A DNA stretch of 64,000 bases. Source: an uncultured Candidatus Saccharibacteria bacterium (GTDB lineage Bacteria; Patescibacteriota; Minisyncoccia; Phycocordibacterales; UBA918). Positions 31,991 through 48,194 of this stretch are shown piece by piece; position 1 is the stretch's first letter; each line of letters starts with the position of its first letter. The stretch lies in contig CAZBMV010000002.1 in NCBI GenBank assembly GCA_964493145.1, positions 14,157-78,156 of the forward strand, written 5' to 3'. The translations under genes and the position numbers were made by a program. The notes under the pieces were generated by a model. It did not search any database and was not told the origin of the DNA. It was given only the letters and a program-made list of their open reading frames with translations.

Positions 31991-32054
31991 ACTGGATTTG
32001 ATCCCGTGCATAAACAATAAAACAGATGGGGTGTGGGTGCTATAATTTACGTAC

Positions 32055-32594
32055 ATGGTAGATGGGAAGTCAAAGATGCTTTTTTGGGTGATGGCGATGC
32101 TCATCGTACTTTCGGTGTCGGCATCGTACTACCGTTTTATGGTGCTCCATGATTACGTCGTGGAGGCGCAAATTGACTGCGACCCGACATTTGAAAGCTG
32201 TTTCGTCTGGGAATGTGACCCGAGCATAGAAGGCGAGTGTACCGGAAATGAAGAAGAAGATACATGGTATTACAAGATTGCACATCGTAACGCGAAGAAC
32301 ATTACCGGTTGCGAAGATGGTGACACGACCTGTCAATTCACCTGTCCGAGTGATGGGGAAGAAGAGTGTGATGAGATACTTTGTTCTGATGAAGCACTTG
32401 CAACATACGACGTTTTGAATACGTGTACAAATCCTGATGATTTTCAGGATGAGACTCTTGAGGAAACAGAAGATGAGGAAGTGGTAAATGAGGAGGAATT
32501 AGTAGATGACACAGAATCATCTGATGAACAGATTGCAGACGATACAATCTCCACAACAGGCGACACCGTTGAAGCAGACAAGGAAATAGAATAA
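32055..32594 (+). CDS. Membrane-anchored cysteine-rich protein with an acidic C-terminal tail
   Basis: N-terminal TM helix, then 12 Cys in about 90 aa (CDP…C…C…CEDGDTTCQFTCPSDGEEECDEILC), then a D/E-rich tail. Confidence 0.45.
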   Translation: MVDGKSKMLFWVMAMLIVLSVSASYYRFMVLHDYVVEAQIDCDPTFESCFVWECDPSIEGECTGNEEEDTWYYKIAHRNAKNITGCEDGDTTCQFTCPSDGEEECDEILCSDEALATYDVLNTCTNPDDFQDETLEETEDEEVVNEEELVDDTESSDEQIADDTISTTGDTVEADKEIE

Positions 32595-32780
32595 AAAATG
32601 TAGATGGTTAGCGGTGTGTGGGGGCGGTTGTCGTAATGATGCAATCATTGCAAGTAAAAATATTAATGGAGCATCCGAGAGGTTTTGTCAAAAGGAGTTT
32701 TTAGACATCCGGTCCGCAGGCACTAGTATGTCGTTGCTTTATAGGGGTTATCTTTGTGCTTTTCATATAACTATTCACCA

Positions 32781-33305
32781 CTACTTAACAATACTGAAAT
32801 GGTGGACATTGATTCTCTTTCCGTTTTTTACACGCGCTGACACAAAAAGCCCGTCTTGTGTAAAACCAACTTTCTCCAAAGCTTTCATCATGGGAATATT
32901 TCCTTCTTCAACCTCTGCACCAATACTGAAAATACCCAGATGTTCAAATGCGTAATGCGCTACAGCATTTATTACTTCTGTCGCAACACCTTTACCCCAA
33001 TAATTTTTGTCGCCAACAACAATGCCTAAATTTGCCACTCCGTGATACTCATTAAATTCGGTGAGAGCGACTGTTCCTATTGTTATCCCGTCAATTGTTT
33101 CAATTGACCAGTAGAAACCCTCTTCATCATTCTCACATTCATTGATGTACTCATATTGTGTCGTGATGTCCTGGGTTACACTTCGTGGTTCTGGCATAAA
33201 CGCTTGTACTTCTGGATCGGTGTCCCATTTCTGCCACAGCTCAACATCGCCCATTTTGAACGGACGGATATTATAATGTTCAGATGTGATTTTCGGTGAT
33301 TTCAT
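32781..33305 (-). CDS. GNAT-family N-acetyltransferase (RimJ/RimL-like)
   Basis: GNAT fold motifs (…IGTVAL…HGVANLGIVVGDKNYWGKGVATE…). Confidence 0.8.
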   Translation of the reverse strand: MKSPKITSEHYNIRPFKMGDVELWQKWDTDPEVQAFMPEPRSVTQDITTQYEYINECENDEEGFYWSIETIDGITIGTVALTEFNEYHGVANLGIVVGDKNYWGKGVATEVINAVAHYAFEHLGIFSIGAEVEEGNIPMMKALEKVGFTQDGLFVSARVKNGKRINVHHFSIVK

Positions 33306-33529
33306 ACAACATCTAGTGTATCAAGAATCCCGGATTTTGTTGAACTCATAGATTCTGTTTAATGTCTCGTATTGCAAATCCTGTTTTTCATCCTATCTCA
33401 CATGCTAGAATGCTCGCATAATTTTACATAGTATGGAAAACAACACTGAACAATATTGGTCGATGCTGGGGAACAAATTGATCTATATATACGAATGATA
33501 CATTCGCAAAAATAATGGCTGACCCCATC

Positions 33530-34465
33530 TCACGGTCGTACATCTGTCCGGTCCAAGATTTTGAACCCTTCTATAACCGCTTCACAAAGAAAGTCCTCAA
33601 GCTGACTCTGGTCCCCTTTTGTCTGTGCCTTATACAGATACGTATAATACAGTTGTTTTTGTTCCTGACGGATAATAGCCGGAGCAATATTTGCGTTAAG
33701 CAGCATAGCGTTCATGAGTAATCGACCAACTCGACCATTACCATCTCCGAATGGATGAATTTGTTCGAACCTACTATGAACATCAGCAGATACGCCAATG
33801 ATGTCCGCAGTCTTTTCATGTATTCTGGTTATTACTTCCGTGATTAATTTAGTGATACTCATATAATTCGCAGTTGCTAAATGAACACCGGTTATTCTGA
33901 CCCCGTGATTTCTATATACACCCGCGTCCGAACGGACACCATTCATGAGAATGCTGTGAAGTTTAAGAACGAGAGCTTCATCGATTATTTTCTTTTGAGC
34001 GATATAATCAAATAAATAATTTAGAGCCGTCTGATGATTTTTTGCCTCCAATTGTTCAGAAAGGCTCTTACTCGGTAACGCAACATTATCAAAAAGGATA
34101 GCCGCTGTATCTCCCTCGGTAAGAGTACTGCCCTCGATACTGTTACTGTGGTATGTGAGCTTCAAAATGAATTGGTCACGAACATCGGGATTATCTAAAA
34201 TCTCATCTATCACACTTGAATATTCATTTGACTTTTTCTGAATAGCTTGTTTTTTTGCCACCAGAAAGTCGGCTGAGATTACCTTCTGTCCGGTAACTTC
34301 TAAAAAAAGTTCGTCTATCAATGCTCGCATTTTTGCTCGCGGGTGAGATTTCTCTGTCCACCAGCTATTAAACGTGACGAAAGACACACCAAACCTTTCT
34401 GCTAATTTGGTTTGGGTTAACCCCAACATTTTTTTAATTATCTCTAGTTTTTGGCGTGTATTCAT
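33530..34465 (-). CDS. Fic-family protein with an N-terminal HTH
   Basis: HPFGDGNGRVGRLL is the canonical Fic motif. The N-terminus has an XRE-like HTH (LTQTKLAERFGVSFVTF). Confidence 0.85.
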   Translation of the reverse strand: MNTRQKLEIIKKMLGLTQTKLAERFGVSFVTFNSWWTEKSHPRAKMRALIDELFLEVTGQKVISADFLVAKKQAIQKKSNEYSSVIDEILDNPDVRDQFILKLTYHSNSIEGSTLTEGDTAAILFDNVALPSKSLSEQLEAKNHQTALNYLFDYIAQKKIIDEALVLKLHSILMNGVRSDAGVYRNHGVRITGVHLATANYMSITKLITEVITRIHEKTADIIGVSADVHSRFEQIHPFGDGNGRVGRLLMNAMLLNANIAPAIIRQEQKQLYYTYLYKAQTKGDQSQLEDFLCEAVIEGFKILDRTDVRP

Positions 34466-34509
34466 ATACGTTTAGATGCGAGTAGTAGTAGATATCAGTC
34501 ATGTTATCA

Positions 34510-34551
34510 AACTTTATAAAGTTAGTCAAAATGTCTAAACCTTATAAAGTT
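34510..34551. promoter_or_regulatory. Two copies of a 14-bp palindrome between the divergent Fic and HExxH genes (putative operator)
   Basis: AACTTTATAAAGTT (a perfect palindrome, 34510-34523) and AACCTTATAAAGTT (34538-34551), centres 28 bp apart. Confidence 0.5.
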
Positions 34552-34610
34552 ACAATAACGCTGATGGTGAAGAAATATTGTCCTGTTTATTCTATAATCT
34601 ATATACAATT

Positions 34611-35363
34611 ATGTACCCACAACATCTTCCCACATATATTCATACTTTTCTTGACTATCCCGACTGGAGAGCCGTCGAATCTGCACACTATATATTTAAC
34701 TACACAAATGGGAGTGAAGCAGAAAGGGAAATCCAACATATCATTCACACACAAGAGGAAGGCTTCACAAGAATACTTAATGTTCTTAAAATTGTACCTC
34801 CCACAAAGAAGATTACATACTACTTTTATCCCAATGAACAGCTCAAAATGCAGCTTATGGGTGATGATTGGTATGCCCAGTCTATTTATAATGAATTCTG
34901 TGTTCATGTGCTATATACATCTGAACACAAACCAATAGGACCACATGAAGATACGCATCTTCTGAGTCTACCGTGGGGTCTTTCGTGGTGCTTCCTCCAG
35001 GAAGGACTTGCGGAACATATAGTTGGACACTCGTGGGACAAATGCTCTCATATTGAGAAGATGAAGGAGGGTATTGCAAAAGGAATCAACCTTTATCCTT
35101 CAACCCAACTTTCAGACGAGGATTGGCTGAATACATCGGACGATGGTGCGATATATTACTATGCACTCGCTGGTTCATGGGCAACGTTTTTGATTGAGCA
35201 GTATGGGCTTGAATGTTTTAAGAATCTGTATACCAACACTCACAATACAATGTCGCGAAGTATGATTGAATCAGCATATATGAAATATTATGGTGTGTCA
35301 CTTGAGAATCTTGAAAGACAGTATTTCCAGAAAATTTTGGGTTCGAGAAGAACTTCTGAATAA
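34611..35363 (+). CDS. HExxH-motif protein, putative zincin-like metallopeptidase
   Basis: GPHEDTHLL plus a downstream Glu (…QEGLAEH…). The start is uncertain: TTG at 34578 or ATG at 34611. Confidence 0.4.
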   Translation: MYPQHLPTYIHTFLDYPDWRAVESAHYIFNYTNGSEAEREIQHIIHTQEEGFTRILNVLKIVPPTKKITYYFYPNEQLKMQLMGDDWYAQSIYNEFCVHVLYTSEHKPIGPHEDTHLLSLPWGLSWCFLQEGLAEHIVGHSWDKCSHIEKMKEGIAKGINLYPSTQLSDEDWLNTSDDGAIYYYALAGSWATFLIEQYGLECFKNLYTNTHNTMSRSMIESAYMKYYGVSLENLERQYFQKILGSRRTSE

Positions 35364-35612
35364 AAATGCAATAAATGTTCTCACGGACGAAAAAATCAGA
35401 AACATCATTGAGAGTTCAGAGATGCAAAAGTTAAATTGGCGCATGAAATTCCCACTTAGGACTATGGAGAAATATTCCATTCCACCAAAAAATGAACGTC
35501 CCACCGTCGTAACCCCTTAAATGCACTGAAGCCCTCTATACTTTAGGACAAATTATGACATTCACACACAGCGGGTAAAAGCGTCGTGTTGTGGTTATGG
35601 GTGTGGTAAAAT

Positions 35613-36404
35613 ATGAGTACGTGTATGGAAAATATCTATTTGTCGCTGGATGAAGCTCGTGAAAAATTGAGAGAGCGGTGGAATGATGTTGAACTCAAAA
35701 GCAAAATTGAAAATGAATTAGGGGATAAATTTATCCAGCAATACTCAAGTGGTCCCCTTGGTATCACCACGCGACAAATAATATCCGCCGACAACGGTTG
35801 TTCTTTTTTAGACTACGCCGCTCATTACATTGGTGCTAAACCATGTGCACAAGAATTTTATGGTGATAAATTCGTTCATTTTAACGAAGAAAAGAAGGGT
35901 CTTGGCAGACTCAGAATCACGCTTAATACTGGAGAGTATGCAACGATTGATTGTATGGATTTCCACGCTTGTGAAAAAAAGAAGTTGATTGACTGTCAAC
36001 TTAAATCAGGCGAATCTCTTGTTGAGTTTCATCATGAACTTCTTGCAATAGACAATATAGGCATTGAGTATTTTGATAATACAAATTGGTACCATTCAAT
36101 CGGTCATGCGACAGATTATTATTATTACATGCTACTACATTTTGTCGCGCACGGTGTTCTCTTTGAGACATTTTATGACGAAGGAGGAACGACAGAGGAT
36201 GAGTTTACACACAATGTGGTATACCCAACGATTAACAGAATCCACGAAAAATTTGGTTTGATGCCAATGCTTATCAGAGCATACCCTGAGCACCAAAGTG
36301 ACGAAGAGGATTTTTACTGGTGGAATCACAGTAATAATGTCAACAAATGCATTATTGAATATGCATTAAAAAATAATCTTGAAATCAAAAAAGTATATGT
36401 ATGA
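35613..36404 (+). CDS. Unknown-function protein, paralog B of the three-member family
   Basis: AT-rich (~38% GC). It aligns with paralogs A and C. Conserved blocks include KKGLGRLRI and the His-rich segments FHHEL and HFVAHG. Confidence 0.5.
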   Translation: MSTCMENIYLSLDEAREKLRERWNDVELKSKIENELGDKFIQQYSSGPLGITTRQIISADNGCSFLDYAAHYIGAKPCAQEFYGDKFVHFNEEKKGLGRLRITLNTGEYATIDCMDFHACEKKKLIDCQLKSGESLVEFHHELLAIDNIGIEYFDNTNWYHSIGHATDYYYYMLLHFVAHGVLFETFYDEGGTTEDEFTHNVVYPTINRIHEKFGLMPMLIRAYPEHQSDEEDFYWWNHSNNVNKCIIEYALKNNLEIKKVYV

Positions 36405-37155
36405 AATATCTAACATTCATCTATCCCTTGATGATGTGCGGACCCAATTAAATCACAGGTGGAATAACGTTGATTTGAGAAAACAAATTGAAGACGAGCT
36501 CGGCGAGTATTTTATGCCGCAGTTTAAAAGTGTACCTCGTACAGTTTCTTTTAGACAAATATGTACTCCAGATCATGGGTTTTTCTTTTTTAATTATGCC
36601 TCCAAATATGTGGGGGCACAGCCACTCGTTCTTGAATACCATGATGATTTATTTGTATCACTAAATGAGGAGAAGAAGGGACTTGGTCGGCTTCGTATCG
36701 TAAATGAGAATGGTGCATGCACAACACTTGATATATTGGACTTTCATGAAAATGAAAGGAAAAAACTTTCAGAGTGCAAAACAAAGCAGGGTGTTAATCT
36801 TGTAGATTTTCATCATGAGCTTTTTAAGGTTTCAAATACTGAGATTGAACTTTTAGATAACTCAAAATGGTTTAAGGCGCAGGGTTCTGCATCTGACTAT
36901 TACTACAATTTGTACCTACACTACGTCGCTCATGGTGTTGCGTTTGAAAATTTATTTGATGAGACGGAAAGTGGAATAAATTTTCTTAATAATATTGTTG
37001 AACCAGCCATTGAACGAATTTATTCTAAATACAATCTCAAACCTCTCATTGCTAGACAGTACCCAACTAATCAAAACGATGCCGAAGATTTCTACTGGTG
37101 GTCCTATCCATCACGTATAAATGATTATATAATTAAAATGAGTCCAGCAAATTAA
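36397..37155 (+). CDS. Unknown-function protein, paralog C of the three-member family
   Basis: Its ATG overlaps the stop of paralog B by 8 nt. It ends 1 nt before the histidine kinase start. Confidence 0.5.
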   Translation: MYEISNIHLSLDDVRTQLNHRWNNVDLRKQIEDELGEYFMPQFKSVPRTVSFRQICTPDHGFFFFNYASKYVGAQPLVLEYHDDLFVSLNEEKKGLGRLRIVNENGACTTLDILDFHENERKKLSECKTKQGVNLVDFHHELFKVSNTEIELLDNSKWFKAQGSASDYYYNLYLHYVAHGVAFENLFDETESGINFLNNIVEPAIERIYSKYNLKPLIARQYPTNQNDAEDFYWWSYPSRINDYIIKMSPAN

Positions 37156-37156
37156 A

Positions 37157-38839
37157 ATGATATGCACTGATATACCACCTCCTGAATATTTAATTTTTTC
37201 GGACACTGTTCCGCAATTGCTTTATTATTCACATATACCTACCGCAATAATAACCTTATTCATTGGGCTTTTTGTTTTTTTGAAAAGTAAAAATTTATTA
37301 AGTGCATTACTTCTTTTAATCTCGTCTACCTTTACAATATGGCTCTTTATTAACCTTCTCAGTTGGACTAGCGTAAACGGTGACTTGATAATGTTCAACT
37401 CTTCACTCTTTGGTATCTTAAACATTGTTCTATTTTTTTCATTTTTATATTTTTATATATTTTATATTAGGAGGTGTGACGTTCACTATTTTTATAAAAT
37501 ATTATTATCACTTTTGCTTTTACCAGTTATTTTATTTAGTCAATATAATTTTTCTGTTTTTAACCTTACTTACTGTGAAGTATTTGATACTGTCGGTGTC
37601 TATTCGGACTATATTTACATACTTGAACTACTTGTATTTATTACCATATTACTATTTGGAGGATATAGTTATATACGTTCCAAGGAGGAGTTGAGAGAAC
37701 AAATTTTACTTATTACTTTTGGTGTAGGATCATTTTTATTTTTGTTTTTTACAACTGGATACTTTGCGAGCTACTTAAATGAAATGGGGTTCAATAACGC
37801 ATTTGAGATTGAGCAGTACGGTCTTTTTGGTATGACATTTTTTATCGGTGTGCTCTCATACCTCATCGTGAAGTTCCACGCCTTTAATATCAAACTTGCG
37901 GCGGCACAGGCGCTCGTCGTTGCGCTTATCTTTATTACCGGATCCGAACTCTTCTTCGTTGAGTCACTCACCAACTACATCCTCGTCAGTATTACGCTCA
38001 TCTTCTCCATCATTGGTGGATACTTCCTCGTGCGAAGTGTAAAGAGAGAAATAGCCCAGCGTGAAGAAATTGCACAACTCGCGGATACACTGGCGAAGGC
38101 GAATGAGCGATTGAAGATTTTGGACAAAATGAAGTCGGAGTTTGTCTCCATTGCATCGCACCAGCTCCGAAGCCCGCTCACCTCTATTCGCGGCTACGCG
38201 TCTATGCTTGCAGAAGGATCGTATGGGAAACTACCTGAGAAAGCGCAGGAAGTTGCAAGCAGTATTGCCGAGTCAAGCAAATTTATGGCAATGTCTATTG
38301 AGGACTACCTCAATGTCTCGCGCATTGAAGCGGGGAACATGAAGTACGAGATGAGCGACTTTAGCTTAAAAGATGTTGCCGGAAAGGTTGTGGACGAATT
38401 GCGACCAACCGCCATGAAGAAGGGTCTTGTCATGGTCTTCCGTTCTGATTGCACCACGCAGGGTACCATTCACGCCGACATAGGAAAGACGCGCCAGATC
38501 ATCATGAACCTCGTGGACAACTCCATGAAGTACACGCCAAAGGGTACCGTGACGGTCATCGCGCACGACGACGTGAAAAAGAAGAAGATGTACGTCACGA
38601 TTCAAGACACCGGCATTGGCATGAGCAAGGAAACGCTAGAAGAGGTCTTTGATAAGTTCGTGAGGGCAAAGAACGCCAACAGCGTAAACGTCACCGGCAC
38701 CGGTCTCGGCCTTTTTGTCGCAAAGAAAATGGTTACCGAAATGAAAGGTAAGGTCTGGGCCGAGTCTGAAGGAGAAGGCAAGGGCTCACGGTTCATTGTG
38801 GAGTTTCCACTGATTTCTGGGGATGCGAGTGGGAAGTAA
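37157..38839 (+). CDS. Sensor histidine kinase with a multi-TM N-terminal domain; no response regulator nearby
   Basis: HisKA H-box (SIASHQLRSPLTSIRGY) and HATPase_c N/G boxes (NLVDNSMKYT, GTGLGLFVAKKMV). The N-terminus has about 7-8 hydrophobic helices, partly encoded by a very AT-rich low-complexity stretch. Confidence 0.8.
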   Translation: MICTDIPPPEYLIFSDTVPQLLYYSHIPTAIITLFIGLFVFLKSKNLLSALLLLISSTFTIWLFINLLSWTSVNGDLIMFNSSLFGILNIVLFFSFLYFYIFYIRRCDVHYFYKILLSLLLLPVILFSQYNFSVFNLTYCEVFDTVGVYSDYIYILELLVFITILLFGGYSYIRSKEELREQILLITFGVGSFLFLFFTTGYFASYLNEMGFNNAFEIEQYGLFGMTFFIGVLSYLIVKFHAFNIKLAAAQALVVALIFITGSELFFVESLTNYILVSITLIFSIIGGYFLVRSVKREIAQREEIAQLADTLAKANERLKILDKMKSEFVSIASHQLRSPLTSIRGYASMLAEGSYGKLPEKAQEVASSIAESSKFMAMSIEDYLNVSRIEAGNMKYEMSDFSLKDVAGKVVDELRPTAMKKGLVMVFRSDCTTQGTIHADIGKTRQIIMNLVDNSMKYTPKGTVTVIAHDDVKKKKMYVTIQDTGIGMSKETLEEVFDKFVRAKNANSVNVTGTGLGLFVAKKMVTEMKGKVWAESEGEGKGSRFIVEFPLISGDASGK

Positions 38840-38851
38840 TTTTTTATGTAA

Positions 38852-39244
38852 GAAAAACAGTTTGACGAATGGAATAATGTTAAGAAGAAAATTGATTCTC
38901 ACATTCACAAGCCACCGCTATTTAAAGAACGTGAAATTTGGTGGTGCTCATTTGGTGTAAATGTTGGGTCAGAAGTGTGTGGCAAAAATGTATTTTTTCG
39001 TAGACCAGTTTTGGTTCTCAAAAAACTTTCTCAAACTTCGTTTATAGGAGTACCCCTATCAACAAAGAAGACTGAGGGTACGTGGTATATCGAAATTACT
39101 CACAGTGACGGTATGAAAAATACCGTAAACGTTGCACAGGTACGTTACGTTGATTACAGAAGACTTGATAAGAAGATTGGAACGCTTGATTCAATTGATT
39201 TTGAAAAGGTCAAAAACCAATTGAAAATAGTACTGGGTATATAA
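38852..39244 (+). CDS. MazF/PemK-family endoribonuclease toxin homolog with no canonical start (possible pseudogene)
   Basis: The in-frame region encodes …EREIWWCSFG…RRPVLVL…VPLST…LDSIDFEKVKNQLKIVLGI, which matches PemK/MazF. An ATG at 38846 is followed at once by TAA. The first in-frame canonical start is GTG 38975, which would delete beta-strand 1. Confidence 0.5.
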   Translation, partial: EKQFDEWNNVKKKIDSHIHKPPLFKEREIWWCSFGVNVGSEVCGKNVFFRRPVLVLKKLSQTSFIGVPLSTKKTEGTWYIEITHSDGMKNTVNVAQVRYVDYRRLDKKIGTLDSIDFEKVKNQLKIVLGI

Positions 39245-39437
39245 CATAAATCCCCACCCTTTCGGGCGGGGGACGTGGCTAATGCCAAATGTACGTATAT
39301 TGTATACAGGTAAAGTTGTGTTGTCAATCGAAACTGAGTAACTAATTGCAGAATGAGTATTCCATGGTATTATGTTGATGTGCTTGTGGGGCGTCAGCCC
39401 TATTCGGCTAATACATAAGCTGAAGGCAAGCATATTA

Positions 39438-39468
39438 AAAAATACCACCCTCGGGTGGTATTTTTTAA
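39438..39468. terminator. Bidirectional terminator hairpin
   Basis: ATACCACC-CTCG-GGTGGTAT perfect stem flanked by A-run and T-run, between convergent genes. Confidence 0.6.
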
Positions 39469-39944
39469 TCCTCATCCGGATTACCTTTCATAGTGGATAC
39501 AAATTTGATATCTCTATATTTATTTGTTGTCCATGCAGGCACAACGCTCCAAAAATGTAGCAGTCCATTATCCCCAATTTTTCTCAAGATTACTTTTATT
39601 TTTCTATTACCCATAATCGCAATGATTCCCCAGTACTGTATACGTTTTGCTTTCACAACCTTTGATTTCCTTTCTTTCACTACAAATTCTTTCAACATCT
39701 CTTCATACTCTTGGTGTGTAGTTGAGAGCGCAACGAGTTCAATCACTCGTGGCAAAAGTTTAAAGCGCATTACTTGCGAAGCACGATCACGTTCGTGTCT
39801 CGAATTCTTAAATATAATATGATTGAAACCTTCAGCATTGAAATATACAAGCTCATTCATAACAGGTGAAAACACCGGCTTTTGCAAAACATAAAAGGTG
39901 TGTGAATCCGCTTTTAATTTTTCATAATTTAAAAGATCATCCAT
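39465..39944 (-). CDS. Hypothetical protein (159 aa)
   Basis: ORF with a hairpin terminator downstream. No motif recognised. Confidence 0.4.
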   Translation of the reverse strand: MDDLLNYEKLKADSHTFYVLQKPVFSPVMNELVYFNAEGFNHIIFKNSRHERDRASQVMRFKLLPRVIELVALSTTHQEYEEMLKEFVVKERKSKVVKAKRIQYWGIIAIMGNRKIKVILRKIGDNGLLHFWSVVPAWTTNKYRDIKFVSTMKGNPDED

Positions 39945-39990
39945 GCAAAAAATTATATCATTTCAATGCACAAGTCCTTAACTTGCCTGA

Positions 39991-40185
39991 ATGAGGACAG
40001 GTGATGGTGATTATAAAATGCTTGTCGATTTTCTTATTGAGGAAAATCGGTTTGAAAAAGTATTGTTTCCAAATAGAAAATTTGCATCTTCATTGTATAA
40101 GCAGATTTCACACATTTATTTTGATGACTTAAGCAAAACGGAACTTCGCACCAAAATTGGGAAAAGAAAAGGGGGCCTTAGGTAA
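39991..40185 (+). CDS. Small hypothetical protein (64 aa)
   Basis: ORF followed by a GGGGCC…GGCCCC hairpin plus T-run. Confidence 0.3.
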   Translation: MRTGDGDYKMLVDFLIEENRFEKVLFPNRKFASSLYKQISHIYFDDLSKTELRTKIGKRKGGLR

Positions 40186-40318
40186 TTAACCGTTCGGGCC
40201 CCTTTTCGTCGTGATGTATATATACTAGCAAGATGTTTTTAAAAGTCAACCGTATGCATAAAATAGTATTGGTGATATAACGTAACTGCCCACTCGTCTT
40301 AAGACCGGTGGTCGGTTA

Positions 40319-40918
40319 TTGCTTGAATTATTAAAAATGAAAATTTCTTGGAAAAAATATTTTGAGGTGCGGTGTGCAAAAAATGAACGTGAACTTCTCA
40401 CGGAAGCGCTTCCGTATGTCACGTGTCGAGGTATTGCACTTGATCTTGGCGCCGGTTCAATGAATGACTCAAAGTACCTACTCACACAAAATTTTAAACA
40501 CGTTATTGCAATGGATAGTGACGATGAGGCAGCGATATATGCGCATGAGATTACATCAGATCGTTTTGAATTTGTTAAAGAAACATTTCACAATTTTTTC
40601 TTTCAGGAAAACCTTTATGACCTGATAAACGCACAATATGCACTTCCGTTTATTCCACAGAATGATTTTGATACGCTCATTCCTAGGGTTGTACTGAGTC
40701 TCAAGTCAGGAGGTGTATTTTGCGGACAATTATTTGGTGTTTGCGATTCATGGAATGTGGAAGGGCACGAAATGTCTTTTCATACAGAAAATGAGATTCG
40801 AAATATTTTCAAAAATTTCAAAATTATTAAACTCCTTGAGGACAAAAAGGATGGCTTGACTGCGCTCGGGAAGGAGAAACACTGGCACATTTTTCACATT
40901 ATTGCGGTCAAGATGTAG
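40319..40918 (+). CDS. Class I SAM-dependent methyltransferase (TehB-like size)
   Basis: Motif I (ALDLGAGSMNDS), acidic motif II (IAMDSD) and a motif-III-like LKSGGVF. Confidence 0.7.
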   Translation: MLELLKMKISWKKYFEVRCAKNERELLTEALPYVTCRGIALDLGAGSMNDSKYLLTQNFKHVIAMDSDDEAAIYAHEITSDRFEFVKETFHNFFFQENLYDLINAQYALPFIPQNDFDTLIPRVVLSLKSGGVFCGQLFGVCDSWNVEGHEMSFHTENEIRNIFKNFKIIKLLEDKKDGLTALGKEKHWHIFHIIAVKM

Positions 40919-41013
40919 GTGTCACTCCTTCAGCAACATTAAAAATATAAAGCATGCCTCAAGGTTCAATGTGGGTTTCCACTTCTTCTAAACATTGCAA
41001 GTGCGAACTGATA

Positions 41014-42042
41014 TCAAAACGTCGCAAAAATACGCTTCTCGCTTGAATCAATTCTCACGACTCCTCCGTAGGGCATTGGAATTTGCGGGTCAGTGTGACC
41101 GAAGTCAAGATTCTGTATAACCGGAATTTCAGTATTGTACTTTCTGACCGTTTTGAGAATTGTATCGCGTTGTCCTTGCCGGTACGCAATTTTTTCTTCA
41201 TCAGAGTGTGGCTTGTTGTATTCCCACGCCTTTGGCCGTCCGATAAGAACGCCTTTAATCGCACTCAGTATGCCTCGCTCACCGAACGCGCGAATAACTC
41301 GCATGACGTAGTCATGGGAAGGAATTTCTTCTGACGACTCAAGCATAAGAACAATATCCTTAAATTGTTCATGTGTTGGAATCGATACACCATGACGAAA
41401 CATTTCATCAACTGATTCAATGCAACCACCCCAGAGAATGCCTTGTGCATTTTCTATACCATCCCAGTACCATCCTTCATTACCACAATGCGTCCGACGT
41501 TTGTTGGTGTTTTCAACATCATTCCAGTCAAGTCCTTGGTCATTGTATGTTGATGATGCTTTCAACTCAAATTCACCCTCATCAAACAGTGCGTGTTTAA
41601 TGTACTCAATGGTGAATGCATCCATTTCTCCTTGCATGGCAAACTGCGTAAAAAGGGAAGCACCGTAGTATGAGGGAATGCCGTTAAGAAATAAAAAGTT
41701 TTCAAAGTGAGAATTGTCACTATACCCCAGAAATGGCTTCGGGTTTTTTATAAATGGATCAACAGGAAGATTTTTTACATATGTAACTTGATCATCGCCA
41801 CCGAGTGATGCAATCACTCCTCTGATTGCAGAGTTTTCAAACGCACTGATAAGGTCTCGCGTACGTTCCTCAGTAGACGCACCGACTAATTTTGTGGTAG
41901 GAAACTCAATCGGCTCAAGCTCAAATACTTCACGAACCCTTTTCAATCCGAGTTCATACATATGTGGCCATACGCCTGGCGCCGCAAAAGATGGAGAGAG
42001 AATGGCAATCTTATCTCCTTTTTTTAATTTTGATAATTTCAT
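41014..42042 (-). CDS. S66-family peptidase (LD-carboxypeptidase / MccF-like)
   Basis: GDKIAILSPS N-terminus, GYSDNSHF nucleophile-region motif and an overall length of ~340 aa. Confidence 0.65.
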   Translation of the reverse strand: MKLSKLKKGDKIAILSPSFAAPGVWPHMYELGLKRVREVFELEPIEFPTTKLVGASTEERTRDLISAFENSAIRGVIASLGGDDQVTYVKNLPVDPFIKNPKPFLGYSDNSHFENFLFLNGIPSYYGASLFTQFAMQGEMDAFTIEYIKHALFDEGEFELKASSTYNDQGLDWNDVENTNKRRTHCGNEGWYWDGIENAQGILWGGCIESVDEMFRHGVSIPTHEQFKDIVLMLESSEEIPSHDYVMRVIRAFGERGILSAIKGVLIGRPKAWEYNKPHSDEEKIAYRQGQRDTILKTVRKYNTEIPVIQNLDFGHTDPQIPMPYGGVVRIDSSEKRIFATF

Positions 42043-42147
42043 ATTTAAAAATGATACAGTATTTGCTTTAAAAAATACAAAAATGGTCACTGAAATAAAG
42101 AACTGAATGTAAGGGGTACATTTCAGAACCTTGAGCAGTTTCAGTGA

Positions 42148-42216
42148 GCGGAGAGTGAAGGCGAAGGGAAGGGCTCACGGTTCATTGTGGAGTTTCCACT
42201 CGTGGTGGGGAAATAG
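42148..42216 (+). pseudogene. 3' remnant of a second sensor histidine kinase gene
   Basis: It encodes AESEGEGKGSRFIVEFPL…*, identical in amino acids to the C-terminus of the kinase at 38770-38811, with 32 nt identical and synonymous differences around it. A stop codon lies immediately upstream. Confidence 0.6.
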
Positions 42217-42277
42217 GACACATATTTATTCAGTAATTCAGTATTGCAGAATTACTGAATTTTGCTATACTGGTTTC

Positions 42278-42535
42278 ATGAATACAATCAAACTCAATCA
42301 ACGTGGTGTGCTCACACTCCCAAAAAATATTCGTGATACATTTGGTCTCAAGGCGGGTGAGATTCTCGTTGTTTCAAAAGAAGACAATAAAATTGTGCTT
42401 GAACGCCAGCAATCTGACAAGGAACTTCTCCGTAGTATTCAGCACTCGCTTAACGATATTAAGCACGGAAGGTTTATTGAATTCGGCTCAATTAGCGAGT
42501 TTAAGAAAAAACTAAAAGCATATGATGCGAATTAG
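42278..42535 (+). CDS. AbrB/MazE/SpoVT-type antitoxin
   Basis: MNTIKLNQRGVLTLPKNIRDTFGLKAGEILVV is a SpoVT_AbrB swapped-hairpin domain. It overlaps the downstream toxin by 14 nt. Confidence 0.65.
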   Translation: MNTIKLNQRGVLTLPKNIRDTFGLKAGEILVVSKEDNKIVLERQQSDKELLRSIQHSLNDIKHGRFIEFGSISEFKKKLKAYDAN

Positions 42536-42770
42536 AATTTCTGAAACCGCACTCAAGCAGTACAACAAACTTCCCACAGCACTCAAGCAAAAGGCAAACA
42601 AACAGTTTGAATATCTCCTCTCAGACGTTCGTCACCCTTCTCTACACGCAAAAAAGTACAAGGAGTCCGACGATCTTTGGCAGGCAAGCATTGATAAGAA
42701 TTGGCGTTTTTATTTTTTCATTGTGTCACCAGAGTACATTATCGTTTCAGTCATTAGGCATCCGAAGTAG
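42522..42770 (+). CDS. Type II toxin, RelE/ParE family
   Basis: 82 aa with …DLWQASIDKNWRFYFFIVSPEYIIVSVIRHPK, a typical RelE/ParE C-terminus. Confidence 0.7.
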   Translation: MMRIRISETALKQYNKLPTALKQKANKQFEYLLSDVRHPSLHAKKYKESDDLWQASIDKNWRFYFFIVSPEYIIVSVIRHPK

Positions 42771-43022
42771 CATGCATTTAAAAACACCCTTACTCAATAT
42801 TGCGTATTCAAAAAATGCTGAAATTGAGCGTGTGAAATACACCTACAAGAAACTAGATTGGTACCGTATGGCGGTATGGAGAAAATTATTAAAAAATTGG
42901 CTCAAAATAGGCCTTGAAAGTATATAGACGTGTTTTAAAATTTGTGATATAATCTTGGTCAATTAGTTGTTTCTAGTTTTTTGATTATTTCTTGCCCGGA
43001 GAGCCGGGAGAAAGGATAGAAA

Positions 43023-43799
43023 GTGAGAAATATTCTCATTTCACTGATGTTCGCTCTCGTCTCCTTTGGAGCGTGTGCGAGTACCTCGTCGAACGACGTG
43101 CCGAAAGGCATGTATCCCATTACTTGGGATAGGTCGTTAGCAACCCCTCCGGCAATGACTGCGGAAGAGCTCACGAAGGCGGAGGAGGAACTTCTGCCCG
43201 AGAACGTGGGGAAGACCCACGTCGCTTATGCGAGCGACTATGGTCAGAAGTATGAGGGTGGAGCGGTGGACGAATTTCAACCCTATGCGGAGGTGCAACT
43301 GACCTACCGCAATGGAAGGAATAGCCAGCGTGACCTCTTCGGTCGTCAGGTGTATCTGGAAAATCCCCTTGGGGATTCTGGCTACTCCGTGTGGGCTTCG
43401 GCCTACAAAGATCAGGAGTTTAAGTCAGCATATGTCGGTCTTGCTCTCAAAGAGGGCAACTGGCAGTTCGGCCTCGGTCTCGGCTCCGCCTGGTACGATG
43501 ACAGAAGGAGAAATGCTATCACCCCGTGGGTGTATTATTCGTCCGCGGAATACGTTGGCCTCTTCATTGCCGAACGCTACCTGGGAGACCATGAGGATCC
43601 TTGGTTCTACAAGGGATACTTCCAGAAAAAAATTGGCTCCTTTGGAATTGGCGTCTATGGTGAAAAAGGGGCTGGTATCGGTCCGATGTTGAGTTACAAT
43701 ATCACCAAGTCGGTCAAGGTGTGGGGAGCCGCACCTGTCGCAAAGAAACCGTCCGACGGTGGATTCAGTTTTATCTTCGGACTGAATGTAGAGTTCTGA
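43023..43799 (+). CDS. Lipoprotein with a beta-barrel (outer-membrane-protein-like) sequence signature
   Basis: Signal peptide with lipobox (LVSFGAC). The body is Gly/Tyr/Trp-rich. The C-terminus FSFIFGLNVEF has alternating hydrophobic residues and a terminal Phe. GTG start. Confidence 0.5.
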   Translation: MRNILISLMFALVSFGACASTSSNDVPKGMYPITWDRSLATPPAMTAEELTKAEEELLPENVGKTHVAYASDYGQKYEGGAVDEFQPYAEVQLTYRNGRNSQRDLFGRQVYLENPLGDSGYSVWASAYKDQEFKSAYVGLALKEGNWQFGLGLGSAWYDDRRRNAITPWVYYSSAEYVGLFIAERYLGDHEDPWFYKGYFQKKIGSFGIGVYGEKGAGIGPMLSYNITKSVKVWGAAPVAKKPSDGGFSFIFGLNVEF

Positions 43800-43819
43800 G
43801 TTACTGCGGGGAGCAGTTT

Positions 43820-43851
43820 GCAGGAGCGCACGATGTGCCTCCTGCTTTTTT
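43820..43851 (+). terminator. Rho-independent terminator
   Basis: GCAGGAG-…-CTCCTGC hairpin followed by TTTTTT. Confidence 0.65.
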
Positions 43852-43974
43852 ATTATTAGTACAGTATTTGGTACACATACGATAGAGATTAACGGAGGTC
43901 CGGCTTCCGTTACCATTGTTTTGAGGAAATACTTCTGCCTTTTGCTCTTTGCGTTGATTTGGTACTATTTCCGT

Positions 43975-44919
43975 ATGAACAAAAAACGACTATTTACGGG
44001 GTTGCAACCATCGGGTGCACTTCACATTGGAAATTATTTTGGTGCGCTTAAGCCATTCAGAGACGCCTCGGGTGAGTATGAGAGTTTTCTCATGATTGCA
44101 AATCTCCACGCACTCACGACAATGCGCGATGGGAACGCGCTCCGAGAAAATACATACAATGTCGTGCGCGATTACCTCGCCGCAGGAATTGACCCGAAAG
44201 AGGTAACCATCTTTTTGCAATCGGATGTCCCTCAGCACACCGAACTCGCGTGGGTCTTTGAGTGTCTCGTCACGGTGCCTTTCCTCATGCAGGCGCACGC
44301 GTATAAGGATAAAGTCGCGAAGGGACTTGAGGCGAACGCCGGTCTCTTCAACTATCCGATGCTCATGGCGGCGGACATCCTTCTCTACAATGCAGATGTG
44401 GTGCCTGTCGGCGAAGACCAGCGTCAGCACGTTGAGTATGCGCGTGAAGCGGCAACGAAGTTTAACAATGCGTACGGTGAGACCTTTACCACACCACAGG
44501 AACTCATTTTGAAGAGCGTCGGCATTGTGCCGGGGACTGATGGTCAGAAGATGAGCAAGAGTTACAAAAACACCGTACCGCTTTTTGGAACAAAGGATGA
44601 AATAGCGAAGGCGGTGATGAGTATTGTTACCGACTCCGCGGGTGAACGGCCTGAGAACGTATGCGCAATTCACAAACTCTTTAGAGATGAAGAAAGCTTG
44701 GAGGTACTCTACGCAGAAAACGCAGGAAAGTACAAAAATCTCAAAGACGCACTCATTGAAGACATTGAGACAGTGGTCGCACCAATGCGAGAAAAGAGAG
44801 AGGGTATAACAGATGAGGATGTACGCGGAGTCCTCAGTAACGGAGCGGAACGAGCACACGCAATTGCATCAAAAACAATGCGCGACATCCGAGAGAAAAT
44901 TGGCATTTCGCTCCACTAA
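43975..44919 (+). CDS. trpS: Tryptophanyl-tRNA synthetase
   Basis: GLQPSGALHIGNYFG (HIGH-type motif) and KMSKS. About 314 aa from MNKKRL. Confidence 0.9.
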   Translation: MNKKRLFTGLQPSGALHIGNYFGALKPFRDASGEYESFLMIANLHALTTMRDGNALRENTYNVVRDYLAAGIDPKEVTIFLQSDVPQHTELAWVFECLVTVPFLMQAHAYKDKVAKGLEANAGLFNYPMLMAADILLYNADVVPVGEDQRQHVEYAREAATKFNNAYGETFTTPQELILKSVGIVPGTDGQKMSKSYKNTVPLFGTKDEIAKAVMSIVTDSAGERPENVCAIHKLFRDEESLEVLYAENAGKYKNLKDALIEDIETVVAPMREKREGITDEDVRGVLSNGAERAHAIASKTMRDIREKIGISLH

Positions 44920-44956: not shown

Positions 44957-44986
44957 CAAAAGTCCTGTGCGCACAGGACTTTTAAA
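44957..44986. terminator. Bidirectional terminator
   Basis: AGTCCTGTG-CG-CACAGGACT stem with T/A runs on both sides. A GCCTAGGG-TCA-CCCTAGGC hairpin lies just upstream. Confidence 0.6.
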
Positions 44987-45000
44987 GTTGTTTCATTTTT

Positions 45001-45135
45001 CTATTCAATGCAACTCAGGATGTCAGTAAGACACCCAGTCGTCGCTTCAAACGCATACCCAATCATGAGAACTGCTGCGATTGAATACACCACCTCCACC
45101 CAGTTGCGTTTCATTGCTTCCTTGAGCGCGTCCAT
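45001..45135 (-). CDS. Small hydrophobic protein (44 aa), absent from the ORF track because it is under 60 aa
   Basis: GGAGGTG RBS 5 nt upstream of the ATG. Encodes MDALKEAMKRNWVEVVYSIAAVLMIGYAFEATTGCLTDILSCIE. The bidirectional terminator lies downstream. Confidence 0.45.
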   Translation of the reverse strand: MDALKEAMKRNWVEVVYSIAAVLMIGYAFEATTGCLTDILSCIE

Positions 45136-45239
45136 TTTTCACCTCCTTATATGAGCAACACAACTCCGTTAGTTATTATACGGTACACACGGTACGACAC
45201 TTCACTTTTTAAACAGGTCGGTCCTGTTTATTTGTCTAT

Positions 45240-45470
45240 TTTCTTGACGTTTTGGTGATACACGGTACTCTGTATGTAACCAATGACGCAGCTGACACCT
45301 GCCGAGGAGTGGAGGAATTAAAAGCGTCCTGCACCATTTTGCGAAGCAAAATGGTGCAGGGAAGTAGGGTGGCACCGCGGTTCGCATGAGCGACGTCCGA
45401 CGTCGTTCATGTATCGCCCCTATAGATATATTATTCGTATAATTTATCTGGAGGGGCGTTTTGTTTCTCC
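45240..45470 (+). promoter_or_regulatory. T-box riboswitch leader upstream of the class IIb aaRS gene
   Basis: AAGUAGGGUGGCACCGCGG (45362-45380) matches the T-box consensus AAUUAGGGUGGUACCGCGG. A 15-bp stem-III-like hairpin (45328-45360) precedes it. The alternative CGCCCCU…GGAGGGGCG hairpin plus U-run (45413-45470) shares CCCUAU with the antiterminator 3' strand. A candidate specifier GAC sits in the loop of a GCAG/CUGC hairpin (45287-45301). Confidence 0.6.
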
Positions 45471-45481
45471 ATACATTATTT

Positions 45482-46828
45482 ATGACTCGCATACTCATCA
45501 AAGATTTGAAAGAGCACCTTGAAAAGGAAGTTCTCATTCAGGGGCACATCAATGTCGTTCGTAATCAGGGTAAGGTTGCCTTTTTTGACTTCAGAGACCG
45601 AACGAGCATCGTTCAGGGTGTCATCTTTGGGAAGCCCGATGTTCTTGAATCTGCAAAAGACCTTCGCCAGGAGTCACCAGTTAGCGTACATGGCATTGTG
45701 CACGCGCGTTCCGAAAAAATGGTGAACCCCAATGTTGAAAACGGCGACATTGAACTTGAGATACTGAGCATCACCGCGCTCTCGGCAACTGAAGCGCTTC
45801 CGTTTGACCTCGCATCAGACATCTCCATTGAGACACTCCTTGATTACCGTCCGCTCACACTCCGCCGTCCCCGGGAGCGCGCCATATTTAAGGTACAGCA
45901 CACCATCGTCTCGGCGTATCGTGCATTCCTCGTGAGTGAGGGATTCACGGAGTTTCAGGCGCCAAAGCTTGTCGGTGGAGACGCAGAGGGCGGTGCGGAG
46001 GTATTTGAGGTGAAGTACTTCAACGACGAACGTGCGTACCTCGCGACGAGCCCGCAACTCTACAAGCAGATTATGGTCGGCGTCTTCGAGCGTGTCTTTT
46101 CAGCCGGCGCGACCTTCCGCGCAGAGAAGAGTGCGACGACGAGGCACCTGAGTGAAATCACCATGCTCGATCTTGAGATGGGATTTATCAGTGACCACAC
46201 CGATGTCATTCTGCTCGTCACCAAACTCATGCGTGCGATTACCGATGCCGTTGCGACAGAGTGCGCACGCGAACTTACGCTCCTCGGTATGCAATCACCA
46301 CTCGCACCGGAAACATTTCCCACAATGACGCTCCGGGAGGCGCAAGAACTCATTAAGAGCGAAACAGGGGTAGATAAGACGAGCGAGCCGGACCTTGAGC
46401 CGGAGGACGAACGTTTTCTCTGCGAGTACGCGGCAAAAAATCTCGGCTCCGACTTCGTCTTCGTGACGCACTTCCCAACGAAAAAGCGTCCCTTTTACAC
46501 GCACGTTGACCCTGAGAATCCGGAGTACACGCGCAGTTTTGACCTCCTCTTCCGCGGTCTTGAGATGTGCTCGGGAGGACAGCGCGTACACGAGTACGAG
46601 ATGCTCAAGTCGCGCATCGCCGAGAAGGGGCTTGATCCGGAAAAGTTTGGCTTTTACCTGCAAGCGTTCAAGTACGGCATTCCACCGCACGGGGGCATCG
46701 GCATGGGTCTTGAGCGCCTCACTGCGAAGTTCTGTGGTGTCGCGAATGTGAAGGAGGCGACCCTCTTCCCACGTGATATTCATCGCATAGACACACTCCT
46801 CTCTAAGCACGACGAACATGAAAATTAA
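45482..46828 (+). CDS. aspS: Class IIb aminoacyl-tRNA synthetase, archaeal-type AspRS (AsnRS not excluded)
   Basis: N-terminal OB fold, FRAE (motif 2) and GLERL (motif 3). About 449 aa from MTRIL. The candidate specifier codon GAC in the leader favours Asp. Confidence 0.75.
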   Translation: MTRILIKDLKEHLEKEVLIQGHINVVRNQGKVAFFDFRDRTSIVQGVIFGKPDVLESAKDLRQESPVSVHGIVHARSEKMVNPNVENGDIELEILSITALSATEALPFDLASDISIETLLDYRPLTLRRPRERAIFKVQHTIVSAYRAFLVSEGFTEFQAPKLVGGDAEGGAEVFEVKYFNDERAYLATSPQLYKQIMVGVFERVFSAGATFRAEKSATTRHLSEITMLDLEMGFISDHTDVILLVTKLMRAITDAVATECARELTLLGMQSPLAPETFPTMTLREAQELIKSETGVDKTSEPDLEPEDERFLCEYAAKNLGSDFVFVTHFPTKKRPFYTHVDPENPEYTRSFDLLFRGLEMCSGGQRVHEYEMLKSRIAEKGLDPEKFGFYLQAFKYGIPPHGGIGMGLERLTAKFCGVANVKEATLFPRDIHRIDTLLSKHDEHEN

Positions 46829-48194
46829 CGTTGCGCGCACAGCAAAAAGGGACTACACGCACATTTCATTCATTGAGAAAGGTGTTGAGCGATTTATTGA
46901 AAAGGGTGATGCGACGACGCTCCTCATACCATCGGGAAAAATTTCAAAGGTGACTCCCCGTACGCTCCGCACGTTGGTGCGAGGTGTTGTACAGAGCGCA
47001 AAGAAGTACAAACTTGCGAACATTGCACTTATGCTCAACTACGCTGATTTCACAAAGTGCCACGAGTACGACGAGCAGTGGTTTTTTGCCACTGTCGCGG
47101 AAAACCTCATCCTCGCAGATTACGAACACACCGCGTACAAGAGCAAGAAGGCAACGTACACACTTGAAGAGGTAACGCTCGTGGTGAAAAATGAAACGGC
47201 GGTGCGCGATTTTATTGCTCACGGCATTACACTTGCGACGTACACAAATCTTTGTCGTGATCTTGGAAACATTTCGGGGAGTGACATGACCCCACAGATA
47301 CTCGCGACACGAACGAAAGACATCTTCAAAGGCACAAAGGTGGGGGTGACGGTTTTTGATGAGAAGAAAATGGCATCGCTCGGCATGGGTGGTGTACTCG
47401 GCATAGGAAAAGGATCAAAGCACAAGCCACGATTCATTGTCGTGGAGTACAAGGGTGGTAAAAAAGGTGAGAAGCCGATTGTCTTCGTGGGGAAGGGGGT
47501 TACGTTTGATATGGGTGGGCTTCAGATTAAGCCGGGGATGTCCATGTACGAAATGCACATGGACATGCTCGGTGGCGCGGCGGTCATTGCGGCGATTCGC
47601 GCCATTGCATCACTCAAGCTCAAGAAGAACATTGTCGGACTCATTCCCGCGGTTGAAAATGGTGTCGGAGAAGATGCAATTCGCCCAGGGGATGTACTCA
47701 CGACACTCTCGGGAACGACCGTGGAAGTCCTCCACACCGATGCCGAGGGACGAATCATTCTCGCAGATGCGCTCCACTACGCACGGAAGTACGACCCTGC
47801 GCTCGTCATTGACGTTGCAACACTCACCGGAGCATCACTCATAGCGGTGGGGCAACACGCGAGTGTCATCATGACAAAGAATCGCGCACTTGAGGACACC
47901 CTTCGCAATCTCGGAGAAGAATCAGGTGACTATGTCGCACCGCTTCCGCTCTGGGATGAGTATATGCAGTACACAAAAGGTACTTATGCCGATATCACGA
48001 ACGTCCCAACAGGCGACTCACGAAACGGGGGAACGATTAACGCGGGAATGTTCCTCGCACACTTCACCAAAAAGATGCGCTGGGTACACATAGACATGGC
48101 GCCACGCATGACCTCGGTCCCCTCGGACAAGCTTGCGAAGGGAGCAACGGGGGAACCGACGCGACTACTCGTAAAAATCGCCGAGAAACTCTAA
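46818..48194 (+). CDS. pepA: Leucyl aminopeptidase (M17)
   Basis: GKGVTFDMGGLQIKPG and HTDAEGRIILADAL are M17 signatures. Confidence 0.85.
   Translation: MKINVARTAKRDYTHISFIEKGVERFIEKGDATTLLIPSGKISKVTPRTLRTLVRGVVQSAKKYKLANIALMLNYADFTKCHEYDEQWFFATVAENLILADYEHTAYKSKKATYTLEEVTLVVKNETAVRDFIAHGITLATYTNLCRDLGNISGSDMTPQILATRTKDIFKGTKVGVTVFDEKKMASLGMGGVLGIGKGSKHKPRFIVVEYKGGKKGEKPIVFVGKGVTFDMGGLQIKPGMSMYEMHMDMLGGAAVIAAIRAIASLKLKKNIVGLIPAVENGVGEDAIRPGDVLTTLSGTTVEVLHTDAEGRIILADALHYARKYDPALVIDVATLTGASLIAVGQHASVIMTKNRALEDTLRNLGEESGDYVAPLPLWDEYMQYTKGTYADITNVPTGDSRNGGTINAGMFLAHFTKKMRWVHIDMAPRMTSVPSDKLAKGATGEPTRLLVKIAEKL

Follow-up and report, generated by a model that had tools for sequence, protein, structure and literature searches.

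Structural and biochemical work on T-box riboswitches, as summarised in a review (PMC7583486), indicates that the contact with the tRNA anticodon is too weak on its own, that transcriptional T-boxes generally need a long stem I platform, and that variants with a truncated stem I show hardly any tRNA binding unless stem II is present. The only T-boxes without stem II are glycine T-boxes; these keep a long stem I, and the all-G/C GGC:GCC pairing of glyQS is given as the reason why stem II is dispensable (PMC7583486). Where the specifier lies in an apical loop, stem I is of the short or ultrashort kind found in the translational ileS T-boxes of Actinobacteria; T-boxes of the translational type are described as typically having an ultrashort stem I as well as inserted sequence in stem III and helix A2 (PMC7583486). 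Here we analyse a T-box element in a 64-kb stretch of DNA (the window; 64,000 nt of contig CAZBMV010000002.1) from an uncultured Candidatus Saccharibacteria bacterium. The element spans positions 45244-45481 of the plus strand, upstream of the gene (aspS) for a non-discriminating aspartyl-tRNA synthetase (AspRS), and it is a new combination: a transcriptional T-box with an ultrashort stem I and no stem II domain, in a host of the candidate phyla radiation (CPR). We consider it highly probable that this element is an Asp-specific T-box riboswitch which controls aspS, and probably also the overlapping aminopeptidase gene, by transcription attenuation. That an Asp T-box leader with mutually exclusive antiterminator and terminator precedes this class IIb synthetase gene had been proposed in an earlier reading of the window (the original prediction), and the proposal is borne out by conservation, a covariance model and covariation.

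With the canonical transcriptional T-box (RF00230; TBDB class I; Bacillus subtilis tyrS), the window element shares a stem I that rises from a kink-turn (K-turn), a specifier that is followed by a purine and matches the aminoacyl-tRNA synthetase, a purine-flanked stem III, a T-box sequence in which a 7-nt bulge (UGGN-ACC) separates helix A1 from helix A2, an intrinsic terminator that excludes the antiterminator, and a promoter directly upstream. What it does not have is any distal stem I, the platform for stacking against the tRNA elbow included, and its specifier lies in an apical rather than an internal loop. Stem II and the IIA/B pseudoknot are missing too, both stem III and helix A2 are expanded, A2 has G-C instead of G-U as its basal pair, and the host belongs to the Patescibacteria rather than the Firmicutes.

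The actinobacterial translational ileS T-boxes (Sherwood 2015 as cited in PMC7583486; TBDB class II; Mycobacterium tuberculosis, Nocardia farcinica) have the same K-turn and short helix, an apical-loop specifier at a near-identical position, and insertions in stem III and helix A2. Their S-turn stem II and IIA/B pseudoknot are shared with fuller relatives of the window element (L006, L020, L030 and others; L numbers designate related loci). In the window, however, the 3' part is a terminator with a U-tract rather than a Shine-Dalgarno (SD) sequestrator, the pair concerned is Asp/aspS rather than Ile/ileS, and the phylum is another one. The window and ~50 other family members are without the stem II domain that is reported to be essential for tRNA binding in the actinobacterial class. 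T-boxes of the glyQS type show the same succession of stem I, single-stranded linker, stem III and antiterminator/terminator, have no stem II or IIA/B, and are transcriptional. But glyQS has a long stem I with an elbow platform and a GGC specifier, whereas the window has an ultrashort stem I and GAC.

A literature search, made in an incomplete library, returned no report of T-boxes in CPR, Patescibacteria, Saccharibacteria, Parcubacteria or metagenomes. TBDB ran its short-stem-I model only on Actinobacteria and on sequences already detected by RF00230, and this scope explains how a CPR subfamily could be missed.

One strand of the leader has two alternative partners (Table 1). The 5' strand of the terminator is the 3' strand of the antiterminator, and nucleotides 45415-45423 are common to both forms. 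Within this stretch, the antiterminator pairs consist of GUAGGG/CCCUAU plus GCG (45377-79) with CGC (45415-17). The sharing of CCCUAU between the two forms, which the original prediction had put forward, is thus confirmed; the terminator it placed at 45413-45470 does have both hairpin and U-run, although the stem starts at 45415, not 45413. We folded the nascent RNA up to position 45436 and found that the minimum free energy (MFE) structure is exactly the antiterminator. The complete leader, by comparison, favours the terminator form (-85.2 versus -80.4 kcal/mol for the antiterminator form), and its folding z score against shuffled sequences is -7.8.

The two mutually exclusive conformations are conserved. 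A hairpin followed by at least four U in 8 nt was seen in 56 of the 63 scorable family members (89%), and it starts on the antiterminator 3' strand. An independent RNAalifold run on 33 terminators also arrived at this hairpin, and 11 of its 16 pairs have compensatory changes. The full-leader MFE structure also contains a 10-bp long-range helix between part of the linker (45309-45318, GUGGAGGAAU) and a segment just past the U-tract (45463-45472, GUUUCUCCAU). This pairing is not conserved in relatives, and we do not count it as a feature of the leader.

Table 1. Coordinates and composition of the aspS leader elements and of the two genes that follow
Feature	Position	Strand	Composition	Basis
Sigma-70-like promoter	45244-45271	+	-35 TTGACG 45244-45249; 16-nt spacer; -10 TACTCT 45266-45271	Direct reading
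Ultrashort stem I	45280-45307	+	K-turn, 4-bp helix, apical loop	RF00230 alignment, covariation
K-turn C-helix	45280-45281, 45306-45307	+	C45280-G45307, C45281-G45306; bulge AAU	
K-turn tandem G.A/A.G	45285-86, 45304-05	+		
Stem I helix and loop	45288-45302	+	GCAG 45288-91 with CUGC 45299-302; 7-nt loop CUGACAC 45292-98	
Specifier codon and purine	45294-45297	+	GAC (Asp) 45294-45296; conserved A 45297	Invariance in relatives
Single-stranded purine-rich linker	45308-45326	+	AGUGGAGGAAUUAAAAGCG, 19 nt	RF00230 deletions here
Stem III	45327-45361	+	15-16 bp, loop GAA; 45328-45342 with 45346-45360 (15 bp), 16 with U45327-G45361; then conserved AA 45362-63	Folding, 23 relatives
T-box sequence	45362-45380	+	AAGUAGGGUGGCACCGCGG; 14-nt core AGGGUGGCACCGCG 45366-45379	
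Antiterminator (discriminator core)	45364-45423	+	A1, bulge, A2	MFE of nascent RNA, model R1, covariation
Helix A1	45364-69, 45418-23	+	GUAGGG with CCCUAU	
T-box bulge	45370-76	+	UGGCACC, 7 nt	
Helix A2	45377-81, 45413-17	+	GCGGU with AUCGC	
Hairpin inserted in A2	45384-45412	+	13 bp	
Intrinsic terminator	45415-45466	+	44-nt hairpin 45415-45458, CGCCCCU...AGGGGCG, -22.0 kcal/mol; U-tract UUUUGUUU 45459-45466	Folding, family
aspS (archaeal-type, non-discriminating AspRS)	45482-46828	+	448 aa from ATG 45482	NCBIfam profiles
Leucyl-aminopeptidase gene	46818-48194	+		Start 11 nt before aspS stop codon

All elements named in the original prediction were found, with minor shifts in coordinates. A T-box sequence is present where the original prediction had it, and its core agrees with the consensus AGGGUGGNACCGCG (as quoted in PMC11297988) at 14/14 positions. 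The exact pattern GGGTGGNACCGCG occurs once on the two strands of the window; five further T-box-like sites with two mismatches were rejected, as their number is within chance expectation. The 15-bp helix resembling stem III that the original prediction described at 45328-45360 is also there. It is flanked by purines as in studied T-boxes (5'-RRRxG ... AA-3'; here AAGCG - 45327-61 - AA), with equivalents in 23 relatives. The predicted specifier, GAC followed by A in a loop, was found as well, but the loop comprises 45292-45298 rather than 45291-45297.

Bacterial tRNA-Asp has the anticodon GUC and G73, which fits both GAC and UGGC. By homology to studied T-boxes, the element would bind tRNA, sense its charge and terminate transcription in vivo. 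Transcription would start a few nucleotides before the K-turn, and GAC, displayed in the apical loop of the 4-bp stem I, would base-pair with GUC, the anticodon of tRNA-Asp. When no amino acid is attached to this tRNA, the UGGC of the 7-nt T-box bulge is predicted to pair with its 3' GCCA. With charged or absent tRNA, the 3' strand of the antiterminator would instead become the 5' strand of the 44-nt terminator hairpin, and hairpin and U-tract would stop transcription ~20 nt before the start codon. As the window copy has neither stem II nor IIA/B, capture of tRNA would rest on two base-pairing contacts. We lean, on balance, towards the view that this is the smallest natural T-box architecture yet seen, one that terminates transcription, recognises tRNA-Asp by anticodon and NCCA contacts only, does so without an elbow platform or a stem II/pseudoknot clamp, and is widespread in Patescibacteria.

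To see how far the element is conserved, we compared ~56 CPR aspS loci. GGTGG(C/T)ACCGCG lies upstream of the aspS start in 27 of these, all related Patescibacteria genomes, at a distance of mostly 83-175 nt (275-324 nt in two loci). In the other 29 loci, neither a relaxed motif search nor the family model found a T-box, which we take as genuine absence, and the distribution among CPR aspS loci is patchy and lineage-restricted. The bulge reads UGGC in 25/27 genome leaders and UGGU in the remaining 2. UGACA, which contains the specifier and its purine, is invariant in 23/23 aligned genome leaders and was found in 25/27 of the motif-bearing genome loci. When the stem I helices of 23 genomes were aligned (alignment A3), 99.3% of cells were paired, with compensatory changes in 4/6 pairs; the variants are GCAG/CUGC, GCGG/CCGC, GUGG/CCAC, ACGG/CCGU and GCCG/CGGC. 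None of 500 shuffles reached the covariation score, which collapsed in slid-register controls. As stem III, all 23 relatives have a hairpin of 4-19 bp, unrelated in sequence, which ends flush with (G)AAGUAGGG and has purines ahead of it. The hairpin inserted in helix A2 covaries in L002, L003, L004 and L007.

A metagenome scan with the pattern CTGACA-N(35-65)-AAGTAGGGTGGCACCGCG returned 47 contigs. An AspRS homologue lies downstream in 42/42 of those with enough sequence, and ~40 contigs combine an ultrashort stem I with a linker of 14-27 nt. We then built a covariance model (R1) from a seed of six metagenomic sequences, leaving out the window and its close relatives. Searched on both strands of the whole window, the model matches the element over its full length (45278-45423) with 44.5 bits and E = 5.7e-10. 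A second match (59467-59564, plus strand, 12 bits, E = 0.17) has the bulge AACGCACC without UGG and no gene after it, and we attribute it to chance. In the fetched loci, R1 identified 74 elements, none of them in aspS loci without the motif.

In the resulting alignment of the antiterminator state (A6), 96.8% of 1,663 cells are paired, a percentage inflated by the fact that A6 was fitted to the structure of the model. Compensatory changes occur in 25/28 pairs (271 cells); 0/500 shuffles reach any of five measures, and slid partners give 37-47% pairing. The A1 and A2 pairs are 99% paired over 74 sequences, with compensatory changes, and 5/5 of the modelled stem III pairs covary. Whole-leader MAFFT alignments (A1, A2 and A4) were dropped in favour of module and covariance-model alignments, because variable insertions shift stem III and helix A2 out of register.

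The family model contrasts with Rfam. At gathering thresholds, Rfam gave no match in the whole 64-kb window. A permissive RF00230 scan of a 461-nt slice gave 18.5 bits (E = 0.055), against a gathering score of 93. Taken at face value, this score would formally fail the element in the search that the original prediction had named as its check, but the shortfall corresponds to deleted domains. The alignment places K-turn, stem I helix, stem III and T-box in the correct order and deletes 74 model positions in distal stem I, 27 in stem II and 13 in IIA/B. The low score is therefore due to missing domains, not to a missing T-box. These deletions were absent from the description given with the original prediction.

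The AG bulge, distal loop and tRNA-elbow platform of distal stem I were not found, the window having 5 nt, and relatives 4 nt, in place of the 74 positions. Nor is there room for a distal stem I upstream, since the -10 element ends 8 nt ahead of the K-turn helix. A promoter so near the K-turn also means that the transcript starts essentially at the T-box, with no hidden extra 5' structure. This arrangement recurs in the family: TTGACN-16/17-TANNNT is kept in 18/23 relatives, 7-9 nt before the K-turn. A generic promoter scan missed the window promoter because its -10 agrees with TATAAT at 3/6 positions only.

Stem II and IIA/B, deleted in the window, are present in L006, L010, L020, L027 and L030. 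RF00230 also matches nine relatives, at 27-53 bits and E values between 8e-9 and 0.04, and in each of them stem I has the same deletion of 74 positions. Rfam alone would not call the window T-box; it is the comparative evidence that decides. The curated Rfam threshold misses this CPR T-box subfamily, which leaves an annotation gap.

Sequence comparison places the window element in a Patescibacteria subfamily with an ultrashort stem I, and members of this subfamily fall into three grades. The full grade, with S-turn stem II and IIA/B pseudoknot, comprises L006, L010, L018, L020, L024, L027, L030 and L036. A partial grade has an IIA/B-like element only (L003, L004, L059, L073). In the minimal grade, a linker of 11-27 nt is all that remains; to it belong the window, L001, L002, L005, L007, L008, L011, L014, L016, L017 and ~40 metagenomic members. 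The most compact members of this grade measure ~105 nt from K-turn to antiterminator end. The occurrence of full, partial and minimal forms in one clade looks like a stepwise loss series.

In the window, the linker sits where stem II and the IIA/B pseudoknot would be, and its 3' end is the purine string that flanks stem III. Minimal-class linkers (n=38) measure 13-27 nt, contain 45% A and 25% G (70% purine) and end in R-A-G. In one third of them AGUAA(C) is kept, a sequence similar to the 3' side of the S-turn that was lost. In the window element and its closest relatives, stem III is moreover expanded to 15-19 bp and helix A2 carries the insertion; these expansions are not required, as other minimal members are without them. 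Speculatively, the lost tRNA contacts could be compensated by the purine-rich linker, by the expanded stem III and helix A2, by a protein or by a slow polymerase.

Several observations weigh against an Asp-responsive riboswitch. The RF00230 score is far under the gathering score, a clear U-tract is wanting in 7/63 family members, and the pairing percentage of alignment A6 is inflated, as stated above. A conserved G-U wobble at the basal A2 position has been described as the primary steric sensor of the aminoacyl group (review PMC7583486); in our family the basal A2 pair (45377/45417; columns 231/309 of alignment A6) is G-C in 66/70 members, including the window, and G-U in 4. By current understanding (PMC7583486), the architecture of the window copy should bind tRNA poorly. 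Lastly, tRNA searches of the window, which has no tRNA gene, and of 105 fetched loci found only tRNA-Tyr and tRNA-Ala, and none of 127 fetched loci contains a tRNA-Asp gene, so that the proposed GAC:GUC and UGGC:GCCA pairings take the tRNA-Asp of the host to be like that of bacteria in general.

Some of these points would suit a T-box that has decayed or been repurposed and no longer senses tRNA, acting as a constitutive partial terminator or responding to a signal such as a protein or the pace of RNA polymerase: in published binding data, affinity for tRNA is barely detectable when stem I is truncated and stem II missing, and the basal A2 pair is G-C instead of G-U. We regard such decay as improbable, however, because the tRNA-contacting nucleotides (UGACA, UGGC/UGGU and the purine flanks of stem III) are the most conserved, and ~50 independent members without stem II keep both conformations with compensatory changes. 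Moreover, the specifier always fits the downstream enzyme, even where the type of AspRS differs, and a terminator that does not respond would be expected to be lost ahead of an essential gene. That the whole resemblance is due to chance, a T-box-like 14-mer having come to lie near unrelated hairpins, has a vanishingly small probability. The RF00230 score of 18.5 bits would admittedly mean E ~7 when scaled to the whole window, but this explanation is refuted by the recurrence of the element ahead of aspS, without exception, in 27 genomes and 47 metagenomic contigs, by the E value of 5.7e-10 with the family model and by covariation in every helix.

Another reading makes the element a translational T-box like that of actinobacterial ileS. 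The 3' hairpin would then be a sequestrator hiding GGAGG (45450-45454), translation would start at the in-frame TTG at 45461, and uncharged tRNA-Asp would free the ribosome-binding site. Both the ultrashort stem I with stem III and A2 insertions, described as typical of translational T-boxes, and the position of GGAGG in the window, 6 nt upstream of the in-frame TTG, would agree with this. Yet the conserved start is ATG 45482, and the in-frame TTG at -21 is found in only 3/27 genome leaders. GGAGG occurs in the 3' strand of the hairpin in only 6/63 members, the window hairpin stops 23 nt short of the ATG (family median 29, minimum 22), and a U-rich tract follows it in 89% of members. The purine-rich character of the hairpin 3' strand reflects its complementarity to the conserved CGCCCCU, not a ribosome-binding site. 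Overall, we find a translational mechanism improbable. The suggestion in the original prediction that the terminator buries a GGAGGGG ribosome-binding sequence is not supported either, since this motif lies 27 nt upstream of the conserved ATG, in addition to the rarity of GGAGG in the family.

If the leader functions as an Asp-responsive transcriptional T-box, it contradicts the rule that either a stem I platform or a stem II/pseudoknot contact is required, and also the rule that a transcriptional T-box captures tRNA fast enough only with a long stem I. In that case some compensating feature would so far have gone unrecognised, for example the purine-rich linker as a single-stranded stand-in for the purine string of the S-turn. 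With ~50 conserved, covarying leaders of the terminator type that have neither auxiliary contact, nature provides a test of the minimal needs of tRNA sensing, and the minimal leader offers a compact scaffold for engineered tRNA-responsive switches. The family also indicates that CPR bacteria, with their reduced genomes, keep tRNA-charging feedback on an essential synthetase; in our incomplete library we found almost no documented regulation for these bacteria.

The identity of the downstream enzyme is consistent with the leader. The AspRS open reading frame (ORF) scored 487 bits with the NCBIfam model NF003483 (aspartate--tRNA(Asn) ligase; curated cutoff 353) and 390 bits with TIGR00458 (cutoff 368; profile match from residue 2), while AsnRS models failed their curated NCBIfam cutoffs on the ORF at 45482. 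The GAC specifier agrees with this Asp assignment of a class IIb synthetase and so supports the annotation, in line with the expectation in the original prediction that the leader would inform specificity. An exact-protein look-up for the window AspRS returned no record. Its relatives align from residue 1 (ATG 45482), and the nearest of them, at 60-81% identity, come exclusively from metagenome-assembled genomes of Patescibacteria, labelled Paceibacteria, Parcubacteria, Kaiserbacteria or Saccharibacteria. The original prediction had considered a CPR-like organism, and the closest AspRS relatives bear this out. Because its gene overlaps aspS, the leucyl aminopeptidase is probably co-transcribed with it and would also be under T-box control.

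In four other loci (L082 4307-5900, L098, L105 and L123), the same minimal Asp T-box precedes a 465-aa AspRS of the bacterial type, whose match to NF001750 (570 bits) comes in two parts, the large insertion domain being passed over. Compared with the archaeal-type AspRS of L086, the first ~100 residues of this protein are near-identical and the catalytic cores far more divergent, with a full-length identity of 37%. This comparison suggests an exchange of the catalytic domain, while the leader and the anticodon-binding domain ahead of it were conserved.

An SD-like motif near the aspS ATG (-18 to -4; 45464-45478 in the window) was seen in 2/59 family members. A rough count, taking the starts of maximal ORFs, gave such a motif in 6/45 long ORFs of the window. 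Translation initiation in the host may be largely SD-independent.

Upstream of the leader, a terminator-like hairpin with a T-run (45210-45230, plus strand, TAAACAGGTCGGTCCTGTTTA) lies directly 5' of the -35 element of the T-box promoter and may insulate the leader from upstream transcription. Divergent from the leader is an ORF of 44 aa on the minus strand (45001-45135, MDALKEAMKRNWVEVVYSIAAVLMIGYAFEATTGCLTDILSCIE), preceded by a strong SD sequence, AAGGAGGTG; its hydrophobic core suggests a small membrane protein. In the segment 43921-44983, the adjacent gene for tryptophanyl-tRNA synthetase (trpS, plus strand) has no T-box by motif or family model. The hairpin after it (44958-44983) could terminate trpS and the small minus-strand ORF alike. 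Further upstream, G+C content is 0.38-0.42 across 32001-44000, compared with ~0.48-0.51 in the remaining window, and this segment could be acquired or otherwise atypical.

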